A stretch of 64,000 nucleotides of DNA from Burkholderiales bacterium (GTDB taxonomy: Bacteria; Pseudomonadota; Gammaproteobacteria; Burkholderiales; Ga0077523): NCBI GenBank assembly GCA_019747905.1, contig JAIEQG010000031.1, positions 706 to 64,705 on the forward strand, given 5' to 3'. The position numbers were made by a program, and so were the translations under genes. Below, in pieces: positions 18,776 through 64,000 of this stretch. A model generated the notes under the pieces. The model was given only the letters and a program-made list of their open reading frames with translations, did no database searches and had not been told where the DNA came from. Position 1 is the stretch's first letter; the number at the start of each line of letters is the position of its first letter.

Positions 18776-18791
18776 GGGAGGCGGGCTCGCT

Positions 18792-44393: not shown

Positions 44394-44424
44394 TGGCAGC
44401 GCCGGCAGCTCCGGCGGCTTGGTA

Positions 44425-48392: not shown

Positions 48393-48405
48393 GGACTAAG
48401 GCGCC

Positions 48406-49200
48406 CTAGGGCTGCGGCGGCTGGGGCGCGCCGGCAGAGAGCGTCAGGACTTCGAAGCCTTCGGGGGTCACGAGCACCGTGTGCTCCCATTGCGCCGACA
48501 GGCTGTGGTCCTTGGTCACCACGGTCCAGCCATCGGCGAGTTGGCGGATGCCGGGTCGGCCGGCATTGATCATCGGTTCGATGGTGAACGTCATGCCGGC
48601 CTGCAACTTGAGGCCGGTGCCGCTGCGCCCGTAGTGCAGCACCTGCGGTTCCTCGTGGAACTTGCGCCCGATGCCGTGCCCGCAGAATTCGCGCACGACC
48701 GAATAGCCGGAGCCTTCCGCGTGGACCTGGATCACGTGACCGATGTCGCCCAGGTGCGCCCCGGGACGCACGGACCGGATACCGCGCCACATGCAGTCGA
48801 ACGTCACGTCGCACAGGCGGCGCGCCTGGATCGACGGTTCCCCGACGTAGAACATGCGACTCGTGTCGCCGTGATAGCCGTCCTTGATGATGGTCACGTC
48901 GACGTTGACGACGTCACCGGCCTTCAGGCGCTTGTCGCTCGGAATGCCGTGGCAGACCACGTGATTGACGGATGTGCAGATGCTCTTCGGAAACGGCTGG
49001 TAGCCCGGCGGCGCATAGTTGAGCGGGGCCGGCACCGCACCTTGCTCCTGCACGATGTAGTCATGACACAGGCGATCCAGCTCGTCGGTGGTCACTCCCG
49101 GCTTCACGTGCGGCTCGATGAAGTCGAGCACCTCCGCCGCGAGGCGACCGGCCACGCGCATCTTCTCGATGTCTTCGGGGGACTTGATGGTTACCGACAT
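48406..49200 (-). CDS. map: Methionine aminopeptidase type I
   Basis: VCHGIP, GYHGDTS, GHGIG, EPMIN and SAQWEHT motifs. Confidence 0.97.
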   Translation of the reverse strand: MSVTIKSPEDIEKMRVAGRLAAEVLDFIEPHVKPGVTTDELDRLCHDYIVQEQGAVPAPLNYAPPGYQPFPKSICTSVNHVVCHGIPSDKRLKAGDVVNVDVTIIKDGYHGDTSRMFYVGEPSIQARRLCDVTFDCMWRGIRSVRPGAHLGDIGHVIQVHAEGSGYSVVREFCGHGIGRKFHEEPQVLHYGRSGTGLKLQAGMTFTIEPMINAGRPGIRQLADGWTVVTKDHSLSAQWEHTVLVTPEGFEVLTLSAGAPQPPQP

Positions 49201-49389
49201 AATGTTTCAAACGCGATGCCCGCAAGGTTCTGCGGCAAACAAGACCGCGCCGGCGCTACGGACGCCGAGCAGCGCAGGGCGAAGCCCCGATCGGCACGCG
49301 CGGTCGATACGATACCTTGAACAGTGCGTGCAAGCTGGCTGACCGAGCTTCACCTTGACGGGTCGGCAGCCTTGAAAGTCTAGCGCATT

Positions 49390-49582
49390 TTCAGGCCCCT
49401 CCCCAAGAGCGCATCCGGCAAACCACCCGAGACCCGGATTCCCTACTGAAGTCCGGGCGACCCGTACGGACGATCCGCTGTTCACTTGCCGGAAATTTGG
49501 CAGCGTACCAGGCGAGGGGATCGAGATTCTCGACGGGCACTGGACTCCGCCCTCCTGCATGGAGGGCCGGCGACTCCCCCCA
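49390..49582 (+). ncRNA. Candidate structured non-coding RNA, family not recognised (strand tentative)
   Basis: Several nested stems, 3' end ...CGACTCCCCCCA, TTGACG upstream, no credible ORF, and position at the island boundary. Confidence 0.4.
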
Positions 49583-49637
49583 ATTAATGAATGCGCCTCA
49601 TAGGTCCATGCAGATTGTCCGGACTAATTGATCCGAG

Positions 49638-49880
49638 TTGACGTCTGTGAACCAGGCCGAAACTGATCGCCTGTGGAATGCGATCGTGCAGAACGGCGGA
49701 CAGGAAAGCGCTTGCGGATGGTGCAAGGACAAATGGGGCCTCAACTCGCAGATCACGCCGCGTGCTCTCAGCGACGCGATATCCGACCCCGACCGCGCGG
49801 CAGCCGAGCGAGCGTTCGAGGCGATGATGACGATGGGCAAGATCGACATCGCCGTGATCGAGGCGTCAAGACGAGGCTGA
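49638..49880 (+). pseudogene. C-terminal fragment of a VOC/PhnB-like (3-dmu-9_3-mt family) protein
   Basis: ETDRLWNAI..GGQESACGWCKDKWG...AFEAMMTMGKIDIA; N-terminal half missing. Confidence 0.75.
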
Positions 49881-50170
49881 CGACCGCCGGTAAGGCGTGA
49901 TTTCGTGAATGGCGGAACCTCGACCGTATTGACGCCTGCCATCAAATTGCCAATCCACGAAGGTTCTGTGATGCAGCGTCTGCCGCCATTCGGGAGGCAA
50001 CATACTTTGGCAAGCTTCCTCCGGGTGGTATACCGTCGGCTCTATCGACTACAGCCGTGGCGCATCCAAGCTCCTAACACGCGTCAGTGGCGCGGGGCTA
50101 TCGCGGGGATCTCTTGAGGACCAATCAAGTACGTCGAACCACCACGAGGAATACCAGGAGAACTAGACCG

Positions 50171-50518
50171 ATGAAGCTAACCACCGTACTCGCCGCTGCC
50201 CAGTTGGTGAACGACACGCTCCGCAAGGAGACTGGTGCGCGAGAACTCTCCACGACAGCAGTCGGCGCATTCCTCTGCGTAGCAATGGATGAAGGGACCT
50301 CCATGCAGGGAATCGAGAAGTCACTCGGAATCACGCAGTCAGCCGTGAGCCGCAACGTACAGTCGCTCGGTGGAGGGCGCCCCGATAGCCCCGGGGCCGG
50401 TCTTCTGACCATCGAAGTGAACCCCTACGACCAGCGACAGAAGATCGTGAAACTATCCTCCCATGGTCGCAAAGTCCTGGGGACCATCCAGCGAATCATC
50501 GACGGGTGGCGTGCATGA
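50171..50518 (+). CDS. MarR-like winged-helix regulator
   Basis: RBS AGGAG, HTH motif LGITQSAVSRNV and wing DQRQKIVKLSSHGR. Confidence 0.8.
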   Translation: MKLTTVLAAAQLVNDTLRKETGARELSTTAVGAFLCVAMDEGTSMQGIEKSLGITQSAVSRNVQSLGGGRPDSPGAGLLTIEVNPYDQRQKIVKLSSHGRKVLGTIQRIIDGWRA

Positions 50519-50946
50519 GCCGACTATACGAATGCAAGGGCATCTGGTGATGCAAGGACCGGGACCTCGAGGGAGCCTTAGATCTTCGCGCACGCGTACC
50601 AAGTCGGTCGCCCACAAATTTACAAGGCCCGTGAACTCGCGCTGATGTGAGTGGCCCTTGTGACAGCACCAGAAGGCCTACGACTCTCGACGAGGCCGTT
50701 AGACTAGAATGCTCTCCGCAGGAGAGGACAATCGCCACGAGCCCGAGATTGGCCCCTGGATAGCACCAACGCAGAACACCCGTCAGCCTCGTCTTGCACC
50801 AGCAACCATACACGCCGGCCCAACTCTCGGGCCGCTGCAGCCATCTCCAAGTCGACAAGTTCCCCTCAATTCATCTTGAGGGAAGGCGAAGGCTGAGCAA
50901 CTGCCGCCGTGGCACAGATGACACACAGGAATGCAGGTTCGCATAA

Positions 50947-51327
50947 GTGTGCCTTAGGTGTGTCGCGAATGAGGCGGGTGAAATGGGCACAACGCGTTGC
51001 AACCCATTAAGCAGTTGGCTCGCCGGAGTCGGCGAAGATGCGAACTACGAATACTCGATTCCGCTACTCCACGCTACGCCAGGGACGCCTAAAATCCGTA
51101 AGCGCGACCGGGATCGCGCTGAGGCAATATGCCTAGCCGGAGGTCCCAAGCCGTCTCTCCGGGAGCGGGCCGTGGCGCTAGCACTCGAACGCGGTGTGGT
51201 TCGGACGCGCGACTTGACCGATATCGGTGTACCTCGCTGCTATTTAGCTCGGATGTGTGACGAGGGCCTGCTCGTGAAGGTCAGTTACGGCCTTTATCGC
51301 GCGGGCGAACAACGGCACGCGGCGTGA
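50947..51327 (+). CDS. Stand-alone AbiEi antitoxin N-terminal wHTH-like protein; start uncertain
   Basis: GVVRTRDLTDIGVPRCYLARMCDEGLLVKVSYGLYR; no C-terminal domain and no toxin gene. Confidence 0.6.
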   Translation: MCLRCVANEAGEMGTTRCNPLSSWLAGVGEDANYEYSIPLLHATPGTPKIRKRDRDRAEAICLAGGPKPSLRERAVALALERGVVRTRDLTDIGVPRCYLARMCDEGLLVKVSYGLYRAGEQRHAA

Positions 51328-51447
51328 ATACAGGATGTGAAGGCTAGACGTCATACGAGATCGGTAGGCCCGCCCTTGGAGGATCAGTGGTCGGCAGCCC
51401 CAACGCAAGATCGCTGCTTCACACTGGAGCGGTAATCGCGGTTGCCA

Positions 51448-52413
51448 TCAAGCCGCTGGTTTGGCGGACAGCCGTGGAATCCAGCGCACATAGACGAGCT
51501 CGCTCGCCAGCTCGATCACCGTCTGGGTGACGACTACGGCGGGAACAAGCGGTACCCCGCCCGGAACGGCAAAGGCGAGCGGGAGGATCACAAGCGAGTT
51601 ACGCGTGGCGGCGCTGAACGCCACAGCCCGCGTGCCGCCAGCGTCGAGGCCGCTGGCGCGCGCGACCATCCAGCCGAGCATCGGCGCCACGACGGCATAG
51701 GCCAGGTAGATCGGCGCCGCGGTCAACGCCGCACCCGCGGCCCCTCCGATCTGCGGCGTGACGGCTGCAAGGACGAGGAAGAGCACGAGGGCCGTTGCCG
51801 GCACCGGCAGCAGGCGAGCGCCATCGAGGCGCGCTTGCCGGTCGCCGTCCGGGCCGCCCATAGCTGCAAGGCTGCGGCAAGCAGCAGCGGCGCGGCGATC
51901 AGCCACAAGAACGCATGGATGAAAGGCTCTGGATTGACGAGACCGGAGGCGTCGCCGCCGAGCAGCACGCGCAGATAGATCGGCAGCAGCGCCATTTGCA
52001 ACAAGAGGAGCACCGGGTTTCTGCCAGCGGGCGTGGCGTCCCCGCGCCCGAGATGCGTGAACGTCACCAGATAGTCGACGCACGGGGTCAGCAGCACGAA
52101 CAGGACTGCCAACCGCAGCATCGGCTCGTCGGGCAGGAACTGCCCCAGGATTGCCGTCAGCAGCGGCATGACCAGGAAGTTGGTCGCAAGCAGCGTGCTG
52201 AGGAAGCGCGTGTTCCGCAGCGCTGATCCGAGTTCCGCCAAAGGCACCTGGAGGAAAGTGACGAACAGCATGAACGCCAGAGCTGGATTGGTCGCAGCTT
52301 CGAGCGCCTCCGCGTTCGTCATGCCGAAGCCGGCGAACGCCCCAACGGCGATGGCCGCCAGGTAGAGTGCGATCTGCCGCTCCTCGAGCGCCGCTCGAAC
52401 CCGCTCCACTCAT
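51448..52413 (-). pseudogene. Frameshifted ACR3/bile acid:sodium symporter-family transporter
   Basis: The N-terminal part (FVTFLQVP, NFLVMP, LLTPCVDY) is in the 52409 frame; the C-terminal part (LPVP, TRNSLVILPLA, TQTVIEL) is in another frame. The shift is near 51815. Confidence 0.8.
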
Positions 52414-52536
52414 GTCTCCTTCCTTGCCGCCTCGGTTGCCCCGCCACTTGATGTCACGCCCCTTCTACCATGTCGGTCAAAAAGCGCGCGTGCGGCCTGG
52501 TTTCTTCCGCGTCCGATTGGCGGTGGCCTCCGCTCG

Positions 52537-52749
52537 GTGGGACTGATTGGCCAGCGCACCCGCCACATGCGAGTTCTGTTCAGAAGCGTGATTCAGAACA
52601 TCGATGGACACTTGAATACCGAATCCAATGCTCGTGGAGTTCTGCCGGAGCTTAGGCGTAGCGCCGGGTTCAAAAGCGTGGAGGAGACGTCTTTCGTTCC
52701 AACGCCGAGCGGCTCGATCTCTCTCTCTCGCGGAATTTGTTTGTCGTGA
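52537..52749 (+). pseudogene. Probable C-terminal remnant of a class I SAM methyltransferase
   Basis: QRTRHMRVLFR..IQNIDG..NT..NARGVLPEL...AGF..VEE....PTPSGSISL resembles methyltransferase C-termini; no SAM-binding motif remains. Confidence 0.45.
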
Positions 52750-52803
52750 TGCGAGAGGTCCCAAGTGACGTCGAGTGACGGGGTTTTGTCACAGACGTTC
52801 ATT

Positions 52804-53220
52804 TCACGGCCCGTCCGGATGACCGGGAGAGTCGGCGAGCACTTCGATGATCCGGCAAGTCGCGACTTGCCCGTTGTCGCACTCCTTAATCATCCTGGTG
52901 AGCTCGGCCCTAAGCCCGAGTAGCCGGCGAATCCGGCTCTCCACGGCTGCGAGTTGATCGGTCGCGATCCGGCTCACCTGCTCGCAGGATGCTTCTGGCA
53001 CGTCCTGTAGACCAAGCATCATCTTGATAGCCCCGATGTCGAAACCGAGATCCCGGGCATGGCGGATGAACGCCAGTCGCCGAACGTCCTCCGCTCCGTA
53101 GAGACGTCGTCCACTGTCGGTCCGGGGCGGCGGAGGTACGAGCCTGATCCGCTCGTAATAGCGAATCGTCTCGATATTAACGCCCGTGCGTTTGGACAAA
53201 GCTCCAATGGTGATCATCAT
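52804..53220 (-). CDS. MerR-family metal-responsive regulator (CadR/PbrR/ZntR-like)
   Basis: TIGALSKRTGVNIETIRYYE, FIRHARDLGF, and three Cys (ASC, KEC, TCRII); divergent from an overlapping operator. Confidence 0.92.
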   Translation of the reverse strand: MMITIGALSKRTGVNIETIRYYERIRLVPPPPRTDSGRRLYGAEDVRRLAFIRHARDLGFDIGAIKMMLGLQDVPEASCEQVSRIATDQLAAVESRIRRLLGLRAELTRMIKECDNGQVATCRIIEVLADSPGHPDGP

Positions 53221-53223
53221 TAG

Positions 53224-53254
53224 TTGATTCTGTAGTGGCTACAGGATGTATAGC
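53224..53254 (+). promoter_or_regulatory. MerR-type promoter/operator 1
   Basis: TTGATT-19 bp-TATAGC with dyad CTGTAG-TGG-CTACAG in the spacer. Confidence 0.85.
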
Positions 53255-53388
53255 AACCGACCGGAGGTGTGTAAACTCTGCCGACAAGTAAGGCGTTGGA
53301 TAGGCCACCTCGATGCTTGATGCGTCGATCGAGGAAACAAACCTGGAACAGGCGAGGCGAGGCCCGGGATAACGAAAGGAGAAGGCTC

Positions 53389-54732
53389 ATGAGCCAGCAT
53401 CCCCTGTGGGAATCCGCTTCTCGGGAGCCGGAGATGGTGAAGGAGCGGCTTGCCGATATCGTGGCTTTTGCGCGAGCCAACTCTCCTTACTATCGCGATT
53501 TGTACAAGGACCTGCCCGCGAGGGTCGAGGACCCCAGCCTGTTGCCCGTCACCGACAAGAAGACGCTTATGGCAAACTTCGATAGCTGGGTGACGGATCG
53601 CGAGGTCACGATTGAGCCCGTCCGCAAGTTTATCGAAGATCCGAGCCTCGTCGGCGAAAAGTTCCTCGGAAGATATACGGTCGCCACGACCGCTGGCACC
53701 ACAGGCAACCCCGGCATCTTCGTATTGGATGACAATCACACACGAGGCGGGACAACAAGCCTTCGAGAAGCGTTTAGAACCTGGCTTTCGCTCGGGGATT
53801 TTGTAAGGATTGTTCTCCGCGGGGCGCGAATTGCTGCGCTGCACGCCACCGGGGGTCATTTCGTCTCGGTCACAAGTTTTACCCGGTGGCGACGCTCCAT
53901 CCGCCTTTTGGCGAAACTCGCTCGGGATTTTTCGGTGCACACGCCGATGAAGGAACTCGTCGATCGCCTCAACGAGTTCCGGCCAGCCGTTGTCCTTGGC
54001 TACGCCTCTACCGTCTCTCTGCTCGCTCGCGAGCAGGAGCTTGGACGCTTGCATATAAAACCGGTGTTGCTGGTGCTGACGGCGGAAGGACTTGCGCCGG
54101 ACGAGTACGGGCAGATCGCCAAGGCGTTCGACGCCAATGTCGGAAACGTGTGGGGTTCCACCGAAATCGCCGGCACGGCCTTCAGCTGCGCCGAGGGATG
54201 GCTTCACGTCGTCGGCGAATGGATCATGGTCGAGCCGGTCGACGCCGAATACCGCCCGGTGCCGCCCGGCGAGCAGTCGCACACCGTGCTCGTTACCAAT
54301 CTCGCCAACCGGGTACAGCCGATCTTGCGTTACGATCTCGGTGACCGTGTCCTGCAAAGGCCCGATCCTTGTCCTTGCGGCAATCCTCTGCCTGCTATCC
54401 GCATCCAGGGCCGCTCCGCCGAGGTCCTCCGTTTTCGGACCAAAGCCGGCGAGGAGGTCTCGATTCCGCCGCTGGCGTTCGAGATCGATCACGTGCCGGG
54501 AGTCGATCTGGCCCAAGTCGTGCAAACCACGTCGACGAATCTGCGCGTGCGCCTGCGCTTTGAGTCCGGCGCTGACGCCAACCAGGCTTGGCAAAAGGTG
54601 CACGGCGAATTGAAGCATTTGCTCGCCAGCCACGGACTTGACCAAGTGACGATCGAGCGTGCCGAGGAGCCGCCGGAACAGGGCCGCGGCGGGAAATTCC
54701 GCCAGGTCATGCCGTTGGCTCAGTCAGGATAG
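53389..54732 (+). CDS. Phenylacetate-CoA ligase/F390 synthetase-like adenylate-forming enzyme
   Basis: SPYYR, LPVTDK, TTAGTTGNP P-loop, WGSTE, PILRYDLGD, IQGR and GKFR; RBS AAGGAG. Confidence 0.85.
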   Translation: MSQHPLWESASREPEMVKERLADIVAFARANSPYYRDLYKDLPARVEDPSLLPVTDKKTLMANFDSWVTDREVTIEPVRKFIEDPSLVGEKFLGRYTVATTAGTTGNPGIFVLDDNHTRGGTTSLREAFRTWLSLGDFVRIVLRGARIAALHATGGHFVSVTSFTRWRRSIRLLAKLARDFSVHTPMKELVDRLNEFRPAVVLGYASTVSLLAREQELGRLHIKPVLLVLTAEGLAPDEYGQIAKAFDANVGNVWGSTEIAGTAFSCAEGWLHVVGEWIMVEPVDAEYRPVPPGEQSHTVLVTNLANRVQPILRYDLGDRVLQRPDPCPCGNPLPAIRIQGRSAEVLRFRTKAGEEVSIPPLAFEIDHVPGVDLAQVVQTTSTNLRVRLRFESGADANQAWQKVHGELKHLLASHGLDQVTIERAEEPPEQGRGGKFRQVMPLAQSG

Positions 54733-54770
54733 CCGGCCGATCCAGGCAAGAAATCTGAAGGAGAGCCGTC

Positions 54771-54962
54771 ATGAAAGAAGTCGCCAAATTCCTTGCCGGA
54801 TTTGCAGCCAACCAGGTGCTCACGCATGGAGCCTTAGCCACTGCCGGCATTCAGTTCAGTCTGTTTGGGATCACCTACGACCAGCGGTTTAACACGATCG
54901 CTGTTGTCGTTTGGGCGATCATTCTTCTTCTGCTCATCTACTACGCCTGGGCCAGGAGATGA
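54771..54962 (+). CDS. Small two-TM membrane protein
   Basis: RBS AAGGAG; 63 aa with two hydrophobic segments and an intramembrane His (VLTHG). Confidence 0.7.
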   Translation: MKEVAKFLAGFAANQVLTHGALATAGIQFSLFGITYDQRFNTIAVVVWAIILLLLIYYAWARR

Positions 54963-55010
54963 CGAGCACGGCTCAATACGGCGTGCCTTTAAGAGAGCCG
55001 GACGTGAACC

Positions 55011-55637
55011 ATGCCAGGTGACGAAGAGACAGAGATCCGCCTTGATGCCCGCAATGTCGACGAACGACGCACGCTGCGCTGGGTACTCGGGATTAACTTC
55101 ACACAGGTTCTGGTTGCCGGTGCCGTCGGCATTCTGGCGGACTCCACAGGCCTCCTAGGTGCTGCTCTCGACAATCTGGGGGACGCCGCGGTTTATGCGG
55201 TCAGCCTCTACGCGGTCGGCCATACGGCAATTGCCAAGGCTCGTGCGGCGAACCTTTCCGGCATTCTTCTGATCGTACTTGCTTTCGGATTGCTTATAGA
55301 AGTCTTACGTCGGTTTTTCGCGGGAGCGGAGCCAATCGGGCTCGCCATGATTGTCACGGCGCTCGCGAACGCGGCGACCAACGTGGTCTGCCTTCGACTC
55401 TTGCGAGCTCATCGAACGCATGGTGTGCACTTCAAAGCGTCGTGGATTTTTACGACCAACGACATGGTGGCCAACGCGGGCATCGTCCTATCTGGTCTGT
55501 TCGTCATGCTTCTGAAGTCTCCCGTCCCCGATCTCGTGATCGGGGTTGTGGTCGTCGGAATCGTCCTCAAAGGCGGGTGGGAGATTCTCAAGGAGGCGCG
55601 CGAAGCCCGCGATTCCGCACAGGGAGATAGAGGATGA
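55011..55637 (+). CDS. Cation diffusion facilitator family transporter lacking the C-terminal domain
   Basis: Six TMs, ADSTGLL..ALDNLGDA and WIFTTNDMVAN motifs. Confidence 0.82.
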   Translation: MPGDEETEIRLDARNVDERRTLRWVLGINFTQVLVAGAVGILADSTGLLGAALDNLGDAAVYAVSLYAVGHTAIAKARAANLSGILLIVLAFGLLIEVLRRFFAGAEPIGLAMIVTALANAATNVVCLRLLRAHRTHGVHFKASWIFTTNDMVANAGIVLSGLFVMLLKSPVPDLVIGVVVVGIVLKGGWEILKEAREARDSAQGDRG

Positions 55638-55721
55638 CCAAAGGTCTCCTGTGGGCCCGTAACCAGGCGTTTGTCTCTACGAGGCCGGAGGATCTCGCCG
55701 AACGTGATTTGGAGAGCCGCA

Positions 55722-56966
55722 ATGCACCGGATTCCGCGTGACAGAACCCTAGATTCGACGATCGCCCTAATGGGTGATCCCTATAGATTTATCTCAAATC
55801 GGTGTCGACGCTACCGATCGGACCTGTTCGAAACGCGGCTTCTCCTGCGGAAGACCATCTGTATGACGGGTCCGGAAGCGGCCCGGCTTTTCTACGATCC
55901 GAGCCGCTTCGTGCGCCGCGGTGCGATGCCTAAAGCCGTCCAGAAGACCTTGCTGGGAGTGGGCGGCGTGCAGGGCCTCGACGACGAAGCGCACCGGCAG
56001 CGCAAGCAGATGTTCATGTCGCTGATGACGCCTGAGCGGATCGAGCAGCTGGTGCAGTTGACGGCGGCCGAGTGGGAGATCCGCGCGCACGGCTGGACAG
56101 CCATGGGCGAGGTGTCGCTCTATCCGGAACTTCACTCGCTTCTAACACGCGCGGCCTGCGCCTGGGCGGGGGTGCCACTGGCGGATTCGGAGGTCGACGC
56201 GCGGACCCGGGAGATTGCTGCGTTGTTCGACCATGCCGGTTCGGTCGGATTGAGGCATTTCTGGTCGCGGTGGGCGCGAAAGCGGGCCGACGGCTGGGCG
56301 GCGGACATCGTCGAACAGATTCGTGGCGGCCGTATCCATCCACCGGAGCAGTCGGCCGCCCACGTCATCGCGTGGCATCGGGATCTGAACGGTGAGCTGC
56401 TGACGCCCCAAATCGCCGCTGTCGAGTTGATCAATGTGATCAGGCCGACAGTTGCCGTCTCGGTCTACATGGTCTTTGTCGCACATGCATTGCACGCGCA
56501 TCCCAAGGTTCGAGAGATGCTTCAAGCCGGAGATGACGGCTACGTCGGCCGCTTCGTCCAAGAGGTTCGCCGGTACTACCCCTTCTTCCCGGCAGTCGCT
56601 GCACGGACGCGCCAAGCCTTCGAATGGAACGGATACCACTTCTTGGCAGGACGACGTGTTCTCCTAGATCTATACGGCACCAACCAGGACCCGCGAACCT
56701 GGGAGAGACCGGAGGACTTCGAGCCCGAGCGATTCCGTCGATCGGATGAGAGTCCATTCGATTTCATCCCACAGGGCGGTGGGGATCACCACGTTGATCA
56801 TCGCTGTCCCGGCGAATGGATCGCAATCGAACTCATGAAGCAGGCAGCGGATTTCCTTACGCGGCGAATGAGCTACGATGTGCCGGAGCAAGACCTGCGC
56901 ATCGAATGGTCGCGGCTACCCGCATTGCCACATAGCCGGTTCGTGATTAGCAATGTGAGAATGTGA
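55722..56966 (+). CDS. Cytochrome P450, CYP152 fatty-acid peroxygenase family
   Basis: I-helix ELINVIRPTVA (Arg-Pro), QEVRRYYPFFP, LDLYGTN and HRCPGEW heme ligand. Confidence 0.9.
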   Translation: MHRIPRDRTLDSTIALMGDPYRFISNRCRRYRSDLFETRLLLRKTICMTGPEAARLFYDPSRFVRRGAMPKAVQKTLLGVGGVQGLDDEAHRQRKQMFMSLMTPERIEQLVQLTAAEWEIRAHGWTAMGEVSLYPELHSLLTRAACAWAGVPLADSEVDARTREIAALFDHAGSVGLRHFWSRWARKRADGWAADIVEQIRGGRIHPPEQSAAHVIAWHRDLNGELLTPQIAAVELINVIRPTVAVSVYMVFVAHALHAHPKVREMLQAGDDGYVGRFVQEVRRYYPFFPAVAARTRQAFEWNGYHFLAGRRVLLDLYGTNQDPRTWERPEDFEPERFRRSDESPFDFIPQGGGDHHVDHRCPGEWIAIELMKQAADFLTRRMSYDVPEQDLRIEWSRLPALPHSRFVISNVRM

Positions 56967-57040
56967 AAGAGAATGGAAGCCGGGAATTGCCTCCATAGCA
57001 TGCATCCAACCTCACGGCCGATTCCACACTTCGCCGCCGC

Positions 57041-57589
57041 CTAGCGGTTCCCCGCCAGCATCAGGACCGCGGCGAGCACATAGGTGAAGACCAGCGGCGC
57101 GGCGGTCAGGGCCATTCCGAAGGCACGGGCGATTGGGCTCGCCGCATAGCCGATTGCGAACGCCGCCCGGCCGACGAGGTAAACCACGACCAGTAAGGGG
57201 ATCAGGACGAGCTCTGAATCTCGCACGACGACGGCCAGAATGAGATGCGCTCCCAGCGTTAGCATGGTCTGCTCAAGCGAATTCTGAAGAATGGCCGCGC
57301 GTAAGGCGATCGCCGGTCTGGGAGGCCCGAATGCCGAGCCCTTGCGGTCCGCTGGAGTCCAGAAGCGGGCCTGCGACACCGCACCGACGCAGCCGGCCAG
57401 CCACAGGAAGATCAACAAATCCCATTTGAGAGCAAATGCGAGGCGATCACCCACCGCCGTCGTGCCGACGACGCCGACGACCTCGGGCGGCAACCACAGG
57501 TACCCGGCGCCCAGCACCGCCACAGCGAAAAGCACTGCAAGGGCGCTTTGCCAGACAATGCTCCATTGCTCGCGGTCAAAGGACATCAT
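57041..57589 (-). CDS. MAPEG-family membrane protein
   Basis: Four TMs, LQNSLEQ and GRAAFAIGY motifs; overlaps the upstream gene's stop. Confidence 0.75.
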   Translation of the reverse strand: MMSFDREQWSIVWQSALAVLFAVAVLGAGYLWLPPEVVGVVGTTAVGDRLAFALKWDLLIFLWLAGCVGAVSQARFWTPADRKGSAFGPPRPAIALRAAILQNSLEQTMLTLGAHLILAVVVRDSELVLIPLLVVVYLVGRAAFAIGYAASPIARAFGMALTAAPLVFTYVLAAVLMLAGNR

Positions 57590-58872
57590 GATTCCTTCTC
57601 GTGGAGCCAGTCTGAATCTCTCGCCTCAGATGCACGTTTCTCGGCTGCAGCCTCTAAGATCTGGTGCGGCCGAAGGGTGGTCAGGACGATCTGCGCCAGC
57701 CCGTTCACATTCGCTGCGACAACGACCACGGTGAGCGCGAGATAGACCCAGCCGAGCCAGGTGAGCGTCCGGATCGTCAACGCGTCATCTTCGCGGAAGC
57801 TGAACGCGAGTCCTACCTGAGCGCTGAACAGCACAGCGAGCGTGAGCGCCCCAATAAGACCGAGCCGCAGGCGCAGCAGCAGTGCCAGCCCGAATAACGA
57901 CTGGGCGGCTGTGAGGAAAAACTCCTCGTGTTGACGGGCATCAAGCGGGAGCGCCATGAGGTTGCCGGCGCCGACGCTCATCGCCAGCGGCAGCATCGCC
58001 ACTAGCAAGGTCCACTGGTTGATCTTATCGCTGATCATCGTCGTGAGGCCGGCAACAGCTCGGTTCGACAGGACGAACAGGATCGCGACTGTGACGGCGG
58101 GCGCTTCACTCGCGAGCGGCGCAAGCCACTGGATGAGCAGGAACTCGTCGATCCCGAGCACACGCCCGGAGTCAACCATCGCTTCGGCGAACGGTTCGGC
58201 AGAGAGGAAGATGACGGCGCCCGCTACCACGGCTAGCCCGATCATCAACGCCCATTGCTGCCCCGGGGGCAGCTGTTCGATTTCAGCGGCAAGCCCGGGC
58301 TCCTCCTGCTCGTCCCTAGCTTTCGGCAACTTTGTCACTCGCCACAGGTAAAGCGCGAATATTCCGACCAGCACCGCCGCATCGAGCGGTGCGATGCTGT
58401 CCTTGAGCAGAATCGTGAAGGCATAGAGGCTTGGCAGCAGCAGAAAGACGATCTCGACGCTGTTGACCGGCGCGAGTGAGATCGCCCTGTTCCGCGAGCG
58501 CCACCAGTGGAGGAGCACCAGCAGCGGCCAGGCCATTCCAACGAGCAGCCGGTTTGCGCCCGTCATGTTGGCTGCGGCATAGTGGACGTAGTTAGACTGC
58601 GGCGCCTGCCCAGCGCGCCAGGCGTAATAGATATCTACCGCATATTCGGGCAGCACGGTGATGATCGCGACCACCGCAAGGATCAGACCGGCTGAAATCT
58701 GCCCCTCCGCAGTCTCCGCCCCCCAGGAGAGCATGAAACCCGCCGCGAGGATCGCTATACCGAAGACCGCCGCGTCCAGGATCGGATCGGGCCGCCAGCC
58801 GACCGCCCGAAAATAGATCGCCGGAACGACGGCGAGGATTGCAATCGCGATCGATATCCGGAGATTTCGCAC
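57586..58872 (-). CDS. CaCA-family (Na+/Ca2+ exchanger-like) antiporter
   Basis: Alpha-repeat motifs TVLPEYAVD...ANMTGAN and PLASEAP...ISDKINQWTLL; about 11 TMs. Confidence 0.82.
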   Translation of the reverse strand: MRNLRISIAIAILAVVPAIYFRAVGWRPDPILDAAVFGIAILAAGFMLSWGAETAEGQISAGLILAVVAIITVLPEYAVDIYYAWRAGQAPQSNYVHYAAANMTGANRLLVGMAWPLLVLLHWWRSRNRAISLAPVNSVEIVFLLLPSLYAFTILLKDSIAPLDAAVLVGIFALYLWRVTKLPKARDEQEEPGLAAEIEQLPPGQQWALMIGLAVVAGAVIFLSAEPFAEAMVDSGRVLGIDEFLLIQWLAPLASEAPAVTVAILFVLSNRAVAGLTTMISDKINQWTLLVAMLPLAMSVGAGNLMALPLDARQHEEFFLTAAQSLFGLALLLRLRLGLIGALTLAVLFSAQVGLAFSFREDDALTIRTLTWLGWVYLALTVVVVAANVNGLAQIVLTTLRPHQILEAAAEKRASEARDSDWLHEKES

Positions 58873-59009
58873 GTTGGCTTCTCCTCAGCGTCTGCCCGGT
58901 CGGTTTGGTTCCAAACCCGCAATGTATTTCGCGATTTCCCGAGGACTCAACATGCTTTCCCATCGCTGTGTGGCAGCTCGCGCCACGTGCCTCCGCGATC
59001 TGATTCGCT

Positions 59010-59040
59010 CGATTACATCCTGTAGCCACTACAGGATCAA
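59010..59040 (-). promoter_or_regulatory. MerR-type promoter/operator 2
   Basis: Minus strand TTGATC followed by perfect dyad TCCTGTAG-TGG-CTACAGGA; the -10 element is weaker (TAATCG at 19 bp). Confidence 0.8.
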
Positions 59041-59213
59041 CCATCATGGCCCCGACCGAAAAAGCTTTCTGAACGTACGGCCTTGCGAGAGGCCTCTCTG
59101 GGGACAGGTGACGACTTGGCCAAGATAATGCGCCGTGAAGGATGCTGGCCGGGACCTGCGACTGACGCGCGGGCGTCATGGCCGAAAGGCCAGAGTTCAA
59201 TTTCGCAGAACCC

Positions 59214-59244
59214 TTGATTCTGTAGTGGCTACAGGAGATATGGT
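59214..59244 (+). promoter_or_regulatory. MerR-type promoter/operator 3
   Basis: TTGATT-19 bp-TATGGT; TTGATTCTGTAGTGGCTACAGGA is identical to operator 1. Confidence 0.87.
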
Positions 59245-59292
59245 CCCTGCGGAGACCAGGCACCGAAGTTCAGATCGCGACCGTAGGAGAGA

Positions 59293-62200
59293 ATGATGAA
59301 AGTTGGTTCTGCGACGCTCAGCCCTGCGAGCTCGCTGCGCTTCAAAGTCGACGGCCTGGATTGCCAGAACGAGGTTCGCGCACTTCGCGCCGCGGTGGGG
59401 CCGTTTGTCGGCGGCGACGATAAGCTGTCATTCAATACTCAAGCCGGTGTCATGGAGGTGATGTCCGACAGTGCTCTGACGGTTGACGCCATCCAGCGGG
59501 CGGTGGCGACGACTGGCATGCAAGCGCATCTCCTGGGGGAGCCGGCGCAGCCTGGACCGGCGCTGCTGTTCCGCGTCGAAGGACTCGATTGCGAGAATGA
59601 GGTCGCGGCGCTCAAGCGTGAGATAGGTCCGCTGGTCGGTGGCGACGCTTGGCTGATGTTTGACACCGCGAACGGGCTCATGACCGTGGCCTCGCAGCGA
59701 CAGGCGTCCGTCGACGATATCATCAGCCGCGTCGTCTCGACCGGCATGCGTGCTTTCCTTGTTGAGGATGGCGCCGCGGAAGCATTGATCTTCCGAGTCC
59801 ATGGTCTCGACTGCAAGAACGAGGTGGCGGCCCTCACGCGGGAACTGGGTCCGCTCGTCGGCGCGGACAAACTGGCCTTCGACACCACGCAAGGCGCGAT
59901 GACCGTGGCCCCTCAGAACCGGACGGCGCCCGACGTGATCGAACAAGCCGTGGCGCGAACGGGCATGCGCGCCGAGCCGTGGATGCCGCCGGCGGTCTCG
60001 TCCCCTGTGTCCGAGCCCTCCAGTAGGCCTGAAGATATGACGTGCGGCTGTGCCGCAGAGGTGCAGGAGGCACTCAGTCCGCCGATCCCGACCCGCTTGC
60101 CGGGCCAGATTGTGTTCCGCATTCACGGCATGGACTGTGCCGACGAGATCGCGGCGTTGAAGCGCGAGGTTGGTCCGCTTGTTGGGGAAGACAAGCTCGC
60201 CTTCGATCTTCTCAACGGCCGCATGTCGATCGACGTGGTGCCGAATGCCGCGCTCGAAGCCCGAGTTGAGAAGGCCGTCGCTCGTGCTGGTCTGCGCGCC
60301 GAGCCCTGGAGTGAAGGCAATACCAGCGAGGCCGCGCTGGCCGAAGAGCGTCGCAAGCAGGTGCAGTCGTGGCTGACAACCGCAAGCGGCGTTCTCACGG
60401 CGCTCGGCTTTGCGGTCCACGCCTGGCTTGGGGGCGGTGTCATCGCGGCCTTCGAAGCAGGCGAACACGCGTTGGGCTCGACACCGTTGCCGAGCATGGT
60501 TCTTTATGCGGTCGCGGTACTCTGCGCGGCGCGCTACGTCGCGCCCAAGGCTTGGCTCGCGGCCAAGCGGCTTCGCCCCGACATGAATCTGTTGATGATG
60601 GTTGCGGTCGCGGGCGCGATTGGCATCGGCGCCTGGTTCGAGGCTGCTACTGTTTCGTTCTTTTTTGCGTTAGCGCTGGCGCTTGAGGCTTGGAGTCTTG
60701 GTCGCGCGCGCCGGGCGGTTGCCGCCCTCATGGAACTCGCGCCGCCGACTGCACGTGTCAAGCTTGAAGACGGCTCCGAGCGCGAGGTCTCGGCGGCCGA
60801 GGTTCGGGTCGGCGCGCGCATCATCGTCCGGCCAGGAGACAAGGTGCCGCTTGACGGCCGGGTCGCCGCTGGCGAGAGCGAGGTCAATCAAGCACCGATC
60901 ACCGGTGAAAGCGTCCCCGTGTTTAAGGTAGAAGGCGACGACGTCTTTGCCGGCACCATCAACGGCGAGGGCGCAATTGAGGTCGTGACCACCAAGGCGG
61001 CGAACGACACGACCCTCGCCCAGATCATCCGCATGGTCGGTTCCGCACAGAGCCGGCGCGCGCCCAGCGAGCAATGGGTGGAGAAGTTCGCGCGCGTCTA
61101 CACGCCTGCGGTGATGGTGCTCGCCGTTGCAATCTTTCTTGCTCCGCCACTGCTCTTGGGCGGTGCCTGGGACGTTTGGTTCTACCGCGCTCTCGTGCTC
61201 CTCGTGATCGCTTGCCCCTGCGCCCTCGTGATCTCGACGCCCGTGACGATCGTGGCGGCACTTGCCGGCGCAGCGAAACAGGGTGTCCTGGTGAAGGGCG
61301 GCGCCCATCTCGAAACGCCTGCGCACCTCAAAGCCATTGCCATGGACAAGACGGGCACGCTCACCGAAGGGCGGCCGCAGGTCGTTGAGATAGTGCCACT
61401 TGTTGGCCGCAGCGAAAGGGAGCTCCTCGGCTTGGCCGCGGCTCTGGAGGCGCGCAGCGCACATCCGATCGCTCGCGCCATCCTGGCGAAAGCCGCCGAA
61501 CTGAACATCGCCGCCGAGCCTGCCGAGGCTGTCCAAGCCATCACTGGCCGAGGCGTCACCGGTCGAGTGGCCGGCCGCGAGATGTGGCTCGGCTCGCGCC
61601 GCTACATTGAGGAGCGGGGCATCGACTCAGCTGAAGTACTACAGCGCGCCGATGCGCTTTCGAGCGCCGGGCGCACTATCGTCGCGGTCGGCGTTGGTCA
61701 GGACGTCTGGGGGCTCGTCGCCGTTGCAGATGCTGTCAGGCCGGAAGCGAAAGACATTGTCACGGCGCTTCACCGCGCCGGGATCGAACACGTGGTGATG
61801 CTCACGGGGGACAACCGCGCAACGGCGGAGGCGATTGCGAAGCAGACGGGCATTGACGAGGTTCGGGCGGAACTTCTGCCCGGCGACAAGGTGGCCGCGG
61901 TCGAGGATTTGGTGCGGCGCTACGGATCGGTGGCGATGGTCGGCGACGGAGTCAACGATGCTCCCGCGATGGGCCGGGCCAATCTCGGTATCGCGATGGG
62001 CGCCATGGGCAGCGACGCCGCAATCGAAACGGCCGATGTCGCACTGATGTCAGACGACCTGTCGAAGCTCTCTTGGCTAGTGCGCCACTCGCGCGCGACG
62101 CTCGCAGTGATCCGGCAGAACGTTGCGTTTTCAATCTTCGTGAAGCTCGTGTTCACGGCGCTGACCGTGGTTGGTCTCGCATCGCTGTGGGGCGCCATCG

Positions 62201-62361
62201 CGGCCGACGTCGGCGCATCGCTGCTGGTCGTTCTCAACGGCCTACGCCTCCTCAATCGTGGTCAGACGACGCTTGAGCGGGGTGGTCCTTCAGCCGGATC
62301 TGGTGTTCCGGCCCGTGTGCATCATGAGTCCACAGTCGCTGCGGTACGCCCGGCGCGCTGA
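59293..62361 (+). CDS. cadA: P1B-2-type heavy-metal ATPase (Cd/Zn/Pb) with four N-terminal HMA-like repeats
   Basis: TGES, CPC, DKTGT, HP and GDGVNDAP motifs, with TM Lys (VKLVF) and Asp (ADVG) typical of P1B-2. Confidence 0.92.
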   Translation: MMKVGSATLSPASSLRFKVDGLDCQNEVRALRAAVGPFVGGDDKLSFNTQAGVMEVMSDSALTVDAIQRAVATTGMQAHLLGEPAQPGPALLFRVEGLDCENEVAALKREIGPLVGGDAWLMFDTANGLMTVASQRQASVDDIISRVVSTGMRAFLVEDGAAEALIFRVHGLDCKNEVAALTRELGPLVGADKLAFDTTQGAMTVAPQNRTAPDVIEQAVARTGMRAEPWMPPAVSSPVSEPSSRPEDMTCGCAAEVQEALSPPIPTRLPGQIVFRIHGMDCADEIAALKREVGPLVGEDKLAFDLLNGRMSIDVVPNAALEARVEKAVARAGLRAEPWSEGNTSEAALAEERRKQVQSWLTTASGVLTALGFAVHAWLGGGVIAAFEAGEHALGSTPLPSMVLYAVAVLCAARYVAPKAWLAAKRLRPDMNLLMMVAVAGAIGIGAWFEAATVSFFFALALALEAWSLGRARRAVAALMELAPPTARVKLEDGSEREVSAAEVRVGARIIVRPGDKVPLDGRVAAGESEVNQAPITGESVPVFKVEGDDVFAGTINGEGAIEVVTTKAANDTTLAQIIRMVGSAQSRRAPSEQWVEKFARVYTPAVMVLAVAIFLAPPLLLGGAWDVWFYRALVLLVIACPCALVISTPVTIVAALAGAAKQGVLVKGGAHLETPAHLKAIAMDKTGTLTEGRPQVVEIVPLVGRSERELLGLAAALEARSAHPIARAILAKAAELNIAAEPAEAVQAITGRGVTGRVAGREMWLGSRRYIEERGIDSAEVLQRADALSSAGRTIVAVGVGQDVWGLVAVADAVRPEAKDIVTALHRAGIEHVVMLTGDNRATAEAIAKQTGIDEVRAELLPGDKVAAVEDLVRRYGSVAMVGDGVNDAPAMGRANLGIAMGAMGSDAAIETADVALMSDDLSKLSWLVRHSRATLAVIRQNVAFSIFVKLVFTALTVVGLASLWGAIAADVGASLLVVLNGLRLLNRGQTTLERGGPSAGSGVPARVHHESTVAAVRPAR

Positions 62362-62400
62362 TCATGGCGTCCGGAAGCTAGATTATGAGGACGTATTGAC

Positions 62401-62985
62401 GTGCAATCTGGAACCTTGCTTGGACGAGCTGCGCTGGCTGGCGCCGCCCTTGCCATCGCTCTCACTATCGACTTCGTCACGAAATGGCTCATCGTCAACG
62501 TTGTGATGGTCCCGCCGCACACGATCGAGATCGCACCATTTTTCAATCTCATGGTTGGTTTCAACACGGGTGTCAGCTTCGGGATGTTCCAAGAGCTCTT
62601 CGTCGATCGCCCACTGTTGCTCGCCGCGCTCATGGCGACGATTGCGGCGGGACTGTTCGTCTGGGCCCTGCGAACGACAAGGCGCATCGAGACATTCGCC
62701 CTAGGTCTGATTGCTGGCGGCGCTGCCGGCAATGTGGTGGACCGGGTGCGTCACGGTGCGGTGATCGATTTCCTCGACCTCCACGTTGGCGATTGGCACT
62801 GGCCCGCCTTCAACATGGCGGACGTCATGATTACAGTAGGCGTCGTCCTGCTGATCACGGGCTCCCTTTGGCCGGCGCGATCGACGGTCTCGATTGACGA
62901 GAGGCCAGCAGATCGAGATTCAAGCGTTCGACCTCACAGCAAAAATGAACAGGAAAGGACCATTCCATGTCAGACACACCGATGA
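62401..62985 (+). CDS. lspA: Lipoprotein signal peptidase II (accessory copy)
   Basis: DFVTK, NTGVSFG, GNVVDR, VIDF and WPAFNMAD motifs. Confidence 0.9.
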   Translation: MQSGTLLGRAALAGAALAIALTIDFVTKWLIVNVVMVPPHTIEIAPFFNLMVGFNTGVSFGMFQELFVDRPLLLAALMATIAAGLFVWALRTTRRIETFALGLIAGGAAGNVVDRVRHGAVIDFLDLHVGDWHWPAFNMADVMITVGVVLLITGSLWPARSTVSIDERPADRDSSVRPHSKNEQERTIPCQTHR

Positions 62986-63305
62986 CCGCCCCTCAATCGA
63001 GAGCCTCAGGTATGTTGTGCCCTCACTGCAAGATCGATCTCGTCATGGCGGATCGCCAGGGTATCGAGATCGACTATTGCCCCACTTGCCGGGGTGTCTG
63101 GCTCGATCGGGGCGAACTCGATAAAATCATCGAGCGTAGCGCCGCACATGACGCGCCTGCACCCGCACCACAAGGGATGCGCCCGCAGGACAACTACCCG
63201 AACCAAGGCGGCCGCTATGACCAAGGCGGCTACGGTCGTCGCGATGATTGCGATGACCGCGGGCACCGGGGCCGCCGAGGGTTCCTTGGACAGCTATTCG
63301 ACTGA
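62967..63305 (+). CDS. zf-TFIIB zinc-ribbon protein with a Gly/Tyr/Arg-rich tail
   Basis: CPHC...GIEIDYCPTCRGVWLDRGELDKII...FLGQLFD. Confidence 0.85.
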   Translation: MSDTPMTAPQSRASGMLCPHCKIDLVMADRQGIEIDYCPTCRGVWLDRGELDKIIERSAAHDAPAPAPQGMRPQDNYPNQGGRYDQGGYGRRDDCDDRGHRGRRGFLGQLFD

Positions 63306-63481
63306 TCTGGAGCAGGCGAGCGATCGTCCGAACGCATCAGCGTGCGGTTCCATTCGTGGACTTCACGTCGGCGATTGGCAGTCTTCGCCTGGTATCGAGC
63401 CACGACGCTCAGCAGGATCAATTGTTTCTCGACTGCTTTCGTCACGCGCGACAAGGCGATTAGGCGGATTTCCGGTACATC

Positions 63482-64000
63482 ATGGATAATCAATCAACCG
63501 GGAGGCGCGCCCTTCTGTTCTTGAACCCGCGAAGCCGCAGCGGTGGTGACCGCGAGCCAGATGCCGCCGTCCGGCAGCTCGAGGATGGCGGATTTACCTT
63601 GACGCGTGTGCTTTGCGCCCAGGCAGGAGACATAGCCCAAGAGGTCAAGCGGCATGCGCAGCAGGTTGATCTTGTGATTGTCGGCGGCGGCGACGGGACT
63701 GTCAATGCCGTGCTCAAGGGCGTGCTGGAGACCGGGTTGCCGCTGGGCATCTTACCGTTTGGCACGGCAAACGACCTTGCCCGGACACTTGGCATTCCGA
63801 GCGACCCGGCAGCGGCGGCCTCGGTCATCGTCGCGGGCCGGACACGTCGGATAGATATCGGCCAAGTCAACGACCAGTTCTTCGTCAACGTAGCGAGCAT
63901 GGGTCTAAGCGTTGAGCTCGCGCGTCGGATGACCGGCAACCTGAAGCGGCATTTGGGGCGGCTCAGCTATCCACTGGCTGCGCTAAAGACAGTGCTTTAC
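63482..64000 (+). CDS. Diacylglycerol kinase/YegS-family lipid kinase, partial (runs off the window edge)
   Basis: Not in the ORF track. Manual translation gives MDNQSTGRRALLFLNPRS...VIVGGGDGTVN...LGILPFGTANDLARTLGIP...FFVNVASMG. Confidence 0.88.
   Translation, partial: MDNQSTGRRALLFLNPRSRSGGDREPDAAVRQLEDGGFTLTRVLCAQAGDIAQEVKRHAQQVDLVIVGGGDGTVNAVLKGVLETGLPLGILPFGTANDLARTLGIPSDPAAAASVIVAGRTRRIDIGQVNDQFFVNVASMGLSVELARRMTGNLKRHLGRLSYPLAALKTVLY

Follow-up and report, generated by a model that had tools for sequence, protein, structure and literature searches.

Control of metal efflux by MerR-family regulators is textbook knowledge. However, a gene island near the end of the window (the whole 64,000-nucleotide stretch of contig JAIEQG010000031.1 from a Burkholderiales bacterium that was analysed here) would fall outside this picture, since a single sensor appears to serve several promoters (three to five per island of this type), which head genes of three transporter classes together with recurring lipid and lipoprotein enzymes.

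Three operator copies and three gene units

The 23-nucleotide (nt) pattern TTGATYCTGTAGTGGCTACAGGA had exactly three matches in the window with up to three mismatches allowed, at 53224-53246 (+), 59018-59040 (-) and 59214-59236 (+), against a mean of 0.00 in 100 dinucleotide-preserving shuffles of the window. The near-identical motif that an earlier note on this DNA had placed at 53224(+), 59040(-) and 59214(+) was thereby recovered. The relaxed core CTGTAG-N3-CTACAG was found at no place other than these three in the whole assembly, which comprises 4,915,534 bases in 164 contigs and is 91.5% complete. Two further sites that appeared with up to two mismatches were fewer than those of a reversed-pattern control (17 and 28) and were counted as chance, so that the wider scan suggested by the earlier note added no copy to the three. 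The operators and genes of the island are listed below, with positions in window coordinates.

52804..53220, minus strand: MerR-family metal-sensing regulator, 138 amino acids, three Cys (EASC, KEC, ATC); Pfam MerR_1, MerR-DNA-bind and MerR
53224..53254, plus strand: operator/promoter 1; -35 TTGATT (53224-53229), 19-base-pair (bp) spacer, dyad CTGTAG-TGG-CTACAG, -10 TATAGC (53249-53254)
53389..54732, plus strand: PaaK-like adenylate-forming ligase, 447 amino acids; conserved MSQ start, frame open from 53296
54771..54962, plus strand: sTM63, a 63-amino-acid hydrophobic protein; no Pfam or NCBIfam hit
55011..55637, plus strand: short cation diffusion facilitator (CDF), 208 amino acids, membrane domain only; Pfam Cation_efflux 55 bits, residues 26-196
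55671..56966, plus strand: CYP152-type H2O2-dependent fatty-acid alpha-hydroxylase-like P450; NF053744, PDB 3awm
57041..57589, minus strand: MAPEG-family membrane protein, 182 amino acids; Pfam MAPEG 45.6 bits
57586..58872, minus strand: CaCA-family cation antiporter, 428 amino acids; Pfam Na_Ca_ex 44.3 bits
58885..58953, minus strand: putative sTM63-like remnant of 22 codons in the CaCA leader; starts like the intact paralog in island L231
59010..59040, minus strand: operator/promoter 2; -35 TTGATC (59040-59035), 19-bp spacer with dyad, -10 TAATCG (59015-59010)
59214..59244, plus strand: operator/promoter 3; -35 TTGATT, 19-bp spacer with dyad, -10 TATGGT (59239-59244)
59293..62361, plus strand: P1B-2 type heavy-metal ATPase, 1022 amino acids; TIGR01512 509.5 bits (cut-off 313.5), TIGR01525 596.6
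62401..62985, plus strand: LspA, lipoprotein signal peptidase II, second copy; Pfam Peptidase_A8 116.5 bits, TIGR00077 115.4 (cut-off 73.95)
62967..63305, plus strand: Zn-ribbon protein, 112 amino acids, D/R/G/H-rich tail; Pfam Zn_ribbon_TFIIB 69 bits
63482..64000, continuing past the window end, plus strand: YegS/BmrU-type lipid kinase, 302 amino acids; NF009604 359.9 bits (cut-off 274)

Read toward the gene that it heads, each copy has a -35 box and a -10-like hexamer separated by 19 bp, within which the dyad lies. The spacer length given in the earlier note therefore stands, while its count of two clear spacers has to be raised to three. Sites 1 and 2 are 96% alike across 28 nt. Operator 1 begins 3 bp from the start codon of the regulator, and about 48 nt separate operator/promoter 3 from the ATPase start. 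Distances of 40-135 nt separate the operators from the first genes downstream. The units are tightly packed, as their genes overlap or stand at most 50 nt apart, with the exception of a 176-nt gap 5' of the lipid kinase. The gene content by Pfam and NCBIfam agrees with the earlier description of one regulator and three operators heading three units. The -10 hexamer TATGGT is common to the ATPase promoters of five islands, namely that of the window and four from other genomes (L228, L232, L177 and L165; L numbers denote loci in our collection).

The leader of about 130 nt between promoter 1 and the ligase start (53255-53388, +) contains a conserved stretch, CCGGAGGTGT, located 10-20 nt past the -10 hexamer. 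It is also present in the matching leaders of L231, L228, L165 and L170, with no obvious start codon after it, and might be part of the divergent promoter of the regulator gene or a leader element.

In the first unit, the ligase had no Pfam hit at E ≤ 0.001 and remained far below the cut-offs of TIGR02304 (98.4 against 251.9 bits), the haloarchaeal PaaK model NF041878 (45.7 against 700) and the F390 synthetase model TIGR03335 (30.4 against 458.7). Nevertheless, it carries the adenylate-forming motifs TTAGTTG, GSTE, RYDLGD and GKFRQV, its C-x-C-G aligns as well, and its best PDB match was PaaK (9s3l, E 9e-16), a combination that suggests a PaaK-like but separate family. The invariant C-P-C-G was considered as a special metal-sensing site and rejected, as the same C-x-C-G and upstream Cys are found in PaaK 9s3l, in 4r1l and in AjiA1. 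In related islands, homologs of sTM63 (75-89% identity) precede genes for a CDF, a CaCA protein or an ATPase. The short CDF lacks the cytoplasmic domain and reached 51.6 bits with TIGR01297 (cut-off 82.35). The CYP152-like P450 scored 579.2 bits with NF053744, just under the cut-off of 600, and matched the PDB entry 3awm ('Fatty acid alpha-hydroxylase') with 540 bits (E 3.9e-161) over residues 20-430, including the distal Arg-Pro (viRPtva) and the haem Cys (HRCPGEW).

In the second unit, the start of the MAPEG gene overlaps the CaCA stop by 4 nt. Plasmid-borne CaCA relatives are annotated as sodium:proton exchangers and adjoin czcCBA. On a Novosphingobium plasmid (L016, 6822-14169), czcCBA-type RND genes and a DUF190 gene are followed directly by the CaCA homolog, an arrangement that is a second, independent tie of this CaCA type to metal efflux. 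An intact sTM63 paralog lies between operator and CaCA in L231, and the corresponding CaCA leader of the window measures 145 nt; the 22-codon open reading frame (ORF) within it looks like the deletion remnant of an sTM63-like gene.

In the third unit, the ATPase stayed below the cut-off of the Cu subfamily model (387.9 against 397), shows a CPC membrane motif in IACPCALVISTP, and is not filed as ZntA itself by the exception model NF033775 (492.8 against 1240). Its N terminus (59293-60500) is built of four tandem HMA-like repeats at intervals of about 222-228 nt or 324 nt. Each repeat has a single Cys, in the form G-L/M-D-C-x-x-E in place of the usual CxxC, which may bear on the metal that the ATPase binds. 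The Zn-ribbon gene overlaps the end of lspA by 19 nt, and the same overlap position was seen in L231 and L177. At full length, the lipid kinase scored 186.3 bits with TIGR00147 (cut-off 118.65).

The contig extends 7 kb past the window, and this part was followed in an extract (L006) whose coordinates plus 52294 give window coordinates. Past the lipid kinase, L006 12106-18613 carries, in this order, genes for MgtC, a DDE transposase encoded on the other strand, UppP, a LysR regulator and the conjugation proteins TrbI and TrbG. The transposase probably belongs to an IS5-type element with two frames. UppP, a BacA/UppP-type undecaprenyl-diphosphatase (L006 13745-14617, outside the window), scored 222.2 bits with TIGR00753 (cut-off 217.5) and 249.7 with Pfam BacA. 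Since the genome has a housekeeping lspA on contig C158 and a housekeeping uppP on contig C143, the LspA and UppP of the island are extra copies. The presence of TrbI/TrbG, LysR and an insertion sequence (IS) downstream of the lipid kinase indicates that the island is part of, or adjoins, an integrative conjugative element. Several results, the extra lspA and uppP copies among them, point to its horizontal acquisition. The GC content is 62%, compared with 66% for the genome, and the island was not found in 40 relatives (24 of the same genus), in which DNA matches were confined to conserved ATPase stretches and one 92-nt stretch of the Zn-ribbon gene. Upstream of the island are the core genes fliD, fliS, glnD and map (48406-49200), as well as several orphan ORFs. 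The latter occupy the segment 49207-52764, from map to the regulator, and comprise two of about 115 amino acids and one of 321 amino acids, all three with no Pfam hit, a weakly MarR-like one, and one at 50947-51327 whose domain is of the AbiEi_4 antitoxin type. A search for tRNA genes and attachment sites over 44000-64000 found none.

The regulator and its metal class

The regulator matched the Pfam models MerR_1 (73.8 bits), MerR-DNA-bind (63.4) and MerR (58.3), covering the winged helix and the dimerisation helix. Its description as CadR/PbrR-like in the earlier note could not be upheld, because NCBIfam gave nearly equal scores for CadR-PbrR (105.9 bits), MerR (103.1) and CueR (101.6), none of which reached the respective cut-off of about 150 bits; ZntR followed with 97.0 (NF007069) and 87.6 (TIGR02043), likewise under the cut-offs. 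The related regulators of L066, L133 and L091 likewise fell below the CadR-PbrR cut-off, and regulators linked to alphaproteobacterial mer genes also missed the MerR cut-off (105-129 against 150.85). The NCBIfam models thus assign this regulator to no class, and the mer-linked regulators fail the cut-offs too. Among PDB structures, CadR (6jgv, 86.5 bits) was the best match, followed by Bacillus MerR (4ua1, 81.6), a PbrR-like protein (5gpe, 70.4) and Tn501-type MerR (5crl, 65.5). The three Cys align with the Cys of CadR, of Bacillus MerR and of Hg-type regulators, and the C terminus (...ADSPGHPDGP) has no His-rich tail.

The distribution of the operator was surveyed by scanning one genome per species for TTGAYNCTGTAGTNNCTACAGGA, which is the window dyad with its two central bases left free. 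As a result, 120 operators from at least 118 loci were obtained, nearly all from Alphaproteobacteria, and tblastn was used to classify the gene that came first in the 400 nt downstream of each. This gene was merT, merF or merB for 80 of the 120 sampled operators, and a gene of Zn/Cd-type cargo for 16 (ligase 4, MBL hydrolase 4, MAPEG 3, ATPase 3, small membrane protein 1, CDF 1); the remaining 24 were unassigned or at a block edge. A Pfam check of 32 first ORFs recovered MerT or MerF in 18. The view that this dyad and spacer are a CadR/PbrR signature is contradicted by the 80 mer-headed operators. Because the operator is common to mer systems, and because the window regulator and the mer-linked regulators all miss their cut-offs, metal specificity is not readable from the operator or from the models.

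These data bear on the alternative of a mercury sensor, or a broad sensor of thiophilic metals, whose regulon derives from mer with its cargo swapped and for which Hg(II) is the inducer or one of several. The prevalence of mer genes behind the operator speaks for it, as do the close CadR-PbrR and MerR scores. The mer-linked regulators are 38-50% identical to that of the window and have the same three Cys with the same C-x7-C spacing; however, the last Cys is followed by Pro in the mer-linked proteins and by Arg in the clade of the window. That clade was seen in a quick tree, built by maximum likelihood from 88 regulators adjoining the operators, where seven regulators with Zn/Cd-type cargo formed one well-supported group (SH-aLRT 99) nested among Hg-type regulators. 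The tree included no CadR, PbrR or ZntR references, and the nesting may reflect sampling. In a Reyranella genome (L229), the island adjoins a mer operon with the same operator core. On the other hand, all three transporters of the window belong to Zn/Cd/Pb-type families, the best PDB match is CadR, and no MerT, MerF or MerB was found by tblastn of the genome at E ≤ 1e-10, a search in which MerA and MerP were not included. Taken together, we regard a mercury sensor as unlikely. The nearest relatives of the regulator, with 87-91% identity, come from Reyranellaceae, Phyllobacteriaceae, Erythrobacteraceae and Xanthobacteraceae. We conclude, from the sequence comparisons, that it is a putative metal-sensing MerR of its own clade that would use the operator of alphaproteobacterial mer systems. 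Its metal range is most likely Zn/Cd/Pb, because the transporter cargo is of this type and merT, merF and merB were not found in the genome. The operator held in common with mercury regulators is a warning against calling the metal from operator sequence.

Related islands and the ligase family in other genomes

About 20 kb around the operators of five genomes with close regulators, together with long metagenome loci, were compared by mapping genes and relaxed operators. The close relatives of the island were found in Alphaproteobacteria and have two to five operators each. An Erythrobacteraceae island (L231) is arranged as a S-adenosylmethionine-dependent methyltransferase (SAM-MT) gene, MerR (91% identical), an operator reading into ligase-CYP152, MAPEG-CaCA-sTM63 read from an operator on the opposite side, and an operator reading into ATPase-LspA-Zn-ribbon-lipid kinase-UppP, which is the same three-promoter layout as in the window. 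A Xanthobacter island (L232) has five exact operators. Four stand before SAM-MT, ligase, MBL hydrolase and ATPase-LspA-CcdA-kinase-UppP-CDF, and the fifth lies beyond the CDF gene with no gene identified behind it. Three operators each were found in L164 and L170, three exact ones and two with one mismatch in L177, two each in L228 and L230, and five in the Reyranella island L229, of which one, next to a second MerR, heads the mer operon. Candidate culturable carriers of a close island are Chelativorans intermedius LMG 28482 (L044/L228), Sphingobium fuliginis ATCC 27551 with its plasmid pSF1 (L015), Xanthobacter sp. VTT E-85239 (L092/L232) and Ancylobacter sp. VNQ12 (L102/L230). A link between the enzyme genes and this type of operator, which the earlier note had made decisive for its proposal, thus exists in other genomes as well. 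CcdA of L229, L232 and L164 holds a place equivalent to that of ccdA in Mesorhizobium. Since the kinase directly adjoins UppP in L177, L231 and L232, the MgtC-IS stretch of the window looks like a later insertion.

In L229, the mer operon (MerR, operator, MerT and MerB; 16943-19594) directly adjoins the Zn/Cd-type island and shares its operator core, and the regulator of this mer operon is 37% identical to that of the window. The two regulators could cross-talk there, as the shared operator predicts for any genome in which both systems occur.

The ligase belongs to a large family: of the 8000 candidates scored, at least 1918 were homologous to it at E ≤ 1e-10. Members with 55-60% identity were labelled as Chloroflexota, Planctomycetota, Acidobacteriota and Methanosarcina, and 14 members from several phyla had a mean column identity of 64%. 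ESM Atlas gave only 'phenylacetate-CoA ligase / F390 synthetase family' clusters and no functional lead. Within the regulator clade, the ligase is the usual divergent neighbour (L044, L066, L102, L113, L115, L059 and L081), and it is also divergent from the regulator in L152, L153, L155, L165, L170, L176, L177 and L178. A tblastn search of plasmids with the ligase returned 28 records. Four contexts were opened, all of which were among metal-homeostasis genes and three under ArsR-type regulators:

Rubrobacter plasmid: ArsR, P1B ATPase, SAM-MT, ICMT, ligase, lspA, ZIP
Arthrobacter FB24 plasmid: P450 (45% identical to the CYP152 of the window), ArsR, ATPase, lspA, CcdA, CadD, ligase
Cytobacillus plasmid: ArsR, SAM-MT, ligase
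Haloarcula plasmid: VIT1, ligase, ATPase fragments

Metagenome loci were analysed for the best 80 of 167 similarity-ranked ligase matches, with neighbours recognised by tblastn using a chosen gene panel. The loci with each neighbour were counted for the whole set and for those with longer flanks:

All 80 loci: P1B ATPase 39, LspA 30, SAM-MT 27, ArsR 22, MerR 19, CDF 21
Loci with at least 8 kb of flank (n = 47): P1B ATPase 38, LspA 29, SAM-MT 24, ArsR 18, MerR 18, CDF 17
Loci with at least 15 kb of flank (n = 34): P1B ATPase 29, LspA 24, SAM-MT 21, ArsR 14, MerR 14, CDF 14

For scale, about 2% of the genome studied here lies within 10 kb of a P-type ATPase hit, an estimate from about five loci in 4.9 Mb. 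The order ArsR-LspA-methyltransferase(s)-ligase recurred in the ArsR-type loci L185, L189, L192-L194 and L197, suggesting a conserved operon. The methyltransferases there comprise class I enzymes resembling UbiE/COQ5 and a membrane enzyme of the ICMT/PEMT type. In its fuller form, the order found by P1B ATPases reads ArsR-LspA-SAM methyltransferase-(ICMT or second methyltransferase)-ligase; L136 and L138 are also among the ArsR-type loci. Members of the ligase family thus stand near P1B ATPase and lspA genes, under regulators of either the MerR or the ArsR type, in different phyla, an association that is new as far as the literature was searched.

The recurrence of these neighbours is also what has to be weighed against a simpler account, in which only the transporters serve metal tolerance and the enzyme genes form no pathway, being passengers or spare housekeeping copies insensitive to metal. 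LspA and UppP are indeed plain second copies of housekeeping genes, the ligase family has no function on record, and module content is shuffled, as MBL hydrolase, SAM-MT, CcdA, MAPEG, CYP152 and kinase come and go between islands and the third unit of the window island is already split by an IS. However, genes for ligase, LspA and methyltransferase recur by P1B ATPases under two unrelated regulator families and on plasmids of Actinomycetota, Bacillota, Halobacteria and Pseudomonadota. Furthermore, the usual divergent partner of the regulator is the ligase and not the pump, and related islands place separate operators before ligase, MBL hydrolase or SAM-MT genes alone. In Mesorhizobium, lspA, ccdA and PAP2 are described as Zn-induced in the text of PMC3668242. 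A passenger role for the enzyme genes is therefore considered improbable.

We accordingly favour another reading, and consider it likely, that these genes are the cargo of a horizontally acquired heavy-metal island borne by a conjugative element, in which one MerR-type regulator governs three co-regulated units. The sites and their geometry were located directly in the DNA; by analogy with MerR and PbrR, a MerR-family activator with a three-Cys site would bind the dyad CTGTAG-N3-CTACAG within three promoters of the sigma-70 type, in which a spacer of 19 bp exceeds the length that RNA polymerase can use. Once the inducing metal is bound, the operator would be underwound and the -35 and -10 boxes brought back into register, with the result that all three units would fire together. 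Judging from their families, the ATP-driven P1B-2 pump, the short CDF and the CaCA antiporter would offer three exit routes from the cytoplasm. The extra LspA and the C55-PP phosphatase UppP would occupy the roles of PbrC and PbrB. Together with the lipid kinase, CYP152, MAPEG and the ligase, they may repair or remodel membrane lipids and lipoproteins damaged by thiophilic metals and the peroxides that these provoke. Such an envelope arm might also immobilise exported metal through phosphate-based trapping.

A bolder and tentative extension, which we put forward as a possibility with the odds against it, places the ligase at the core of an undescribed metal-induced pathway that modifies membrane lipids or lipoproteins and that would be a general second arm of Zn/Cd/Pb resistance beside efflux. 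In Proteobacteria, Actinomycetota, Bacillota and haloarchaea, it might have come repeatedly under MerR- and ArsR-type sensors, along with LspA and SAM/ICMT methyltransferases. In the island studied here, the ligase might activate the 2-hydroxy fatty acids that CYP152 produces with H2O2, so that they can be incorporated or disposed of, while the YegS-type kinase and UppP might cycle polyprenyl or lipid phosphate and deliver periplasmic phosphate that traps exported metal. The substrate of the ligase, once found, could reveal how the envelope is protected or rebuilt under Cd, Zn or Pb stress.

Several observations count against the interpretation as a co-regulated Zn/Cd/Pb island with an envelope arm. 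The regulator is below every NCBIfam equivalog cut-off (105.9 against 151.45 for CadR-PbrR, TIGR02047), keeps the three Cys and the C-x7-C spacing of Hg-type MerRs, and shares their operator. The -10 boxes are weak, TAATCG above all, and a generic promoter scan, which does not cover 19-bp spacers, gave no match at the three sites. As terminator-like sites were not above chance (14 against 8.4 ± 2.8), operon ends were drawn from gene spacing alone. UppP is cut off from the ATPase unit by the IS and has no operator of its own. A look-up of RNA runs listed none that contains the island. The 80 ligase loci are redundant, collapsing to 55 clusters at 90% identity and 20 at 70%; among the 12 informative 70% clusters (those with a long locus), the ATPase was present in seven, LspA in six, and none of the panel genes in two. 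The tblastn panel was self-chosen, so that neighbours beyond it go unseen. Finally, the roles suggested for the ligase, CYP152, MAPEG, kinase, MgtC, Zn-ribbon and sTM63 proteins are presumptive and follow family names.

Comparison with known systems

The pbr lead-resistance operon of Cupriavidus metallidurans pMOL30 is a close counterpart of the third unit. As set out in the text of PMC3431237, MerR and PbrR underwind a dyad operator and in this way activate promoters whose spacers measure 19 bp; in the pbr operon, the ATPase PbrA is accompanied by PbrB/PbrC, in which a C55-PP phosphatase and a signal peptidase are fused. Precipitation of exported metal with phosphate is a proposed role of that system, as cited in the text of PMC3668242. 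The island likewise has a MerR-family activator, a dyad promoter with a 19-bp spacer, and a P1B ATPase gene (59293-62361) followed by a signal peptidase II gene (62401-62985). In contrast, its phosphatase is of the BacA/UppP type and not a PAP2-type PbrB, and it is not fused to LspA, although the chemistry is the same. PAP2 of the PbrB type had no hit among the ORFs scanned, and no PbrT or PbrD annotation occurred among them, a statement based on annotation without a reference-sequence search. Furthermore, the island has three promoters where pbr has one divergent pair, and it contains CDF, CaCA, ligase, CYP152, MAPEG, lipid kinase, Zn-ribbon and MgtC genes that are absent from pbr.

The arrangement also resembles the CadR-CadA (Pseudomonas) and ZntR-ZntA divergons, in which a three-Cys MerR-family regulator stands beside a Zn/Cd/Pb P1B-2 ATPase. 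However, the divergent partner of the island regulator is the ligase rather than the pump, and there are three operators. CadR carries a His-rich tail, which the island regulator lacks. CadR and PbrR have similar binding signals, according to the text of PMC1526738. With alphaproteobacterial mer operons, the island shares the -35 box, the dyad arms (central two bases free) and the 19-bp spacer, whereas its regulator belongs to a separate clade and its cargo consists of Zn/Cd/Pb-type transporters.

A further parallel is the alphaproteobacterial cadA island known from two strains, Mesorhizobium metallidurans STM 2683 and Mesorhizobium sp. STM 4661, where lspA, ccdA, a PAP2 fragment and a short CDF lie near cadA. 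In the text of PMC3668242, cadA, ccdA, lspA, the PAP2 fragment and the short CDF are reported as Zn-induced and mostly Cd-induced too, and the authors liken the signal peptidase to PbrC. The main text of that paper, to which the comparison is limited, names no P450, MAPEG, F390 synthetase or kinase, with GlnE as the only ligase, and the passages compared describe no multi-operator regulon for the cadA island. A cyanobacterial MAPEG2-type transferase has a reported role in tolerance to heat, cold and lipid peroxidation (PMC6798054). Our literature search, which lay outside supplements and most subscription journals, found no paper tying the ligase family, CYP152, MAPEG or a YegS-type kinase to metal islands. 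The earlier claim of an undescribed system may consequently hold for the ligase, CYP152, MAPEG and lipid-kinase parts; it goes too far for the arm of ATPase, LspA and phosphatase, which has precedents in the texts on pbr (PMC3431237) and Mesorhizobium (PMC3668242). By analogy with these, the ATPase-LspA-UppP arm can be regarded as a pbr/cadA-like module in which a non-homologous phosphatase would stand in for PbrB. The parts that go beyond the described systems are the three to five promoters per island and the recurrent cargo of ligase, CYP152, MAPEG, methyltransferase and kinase genes.

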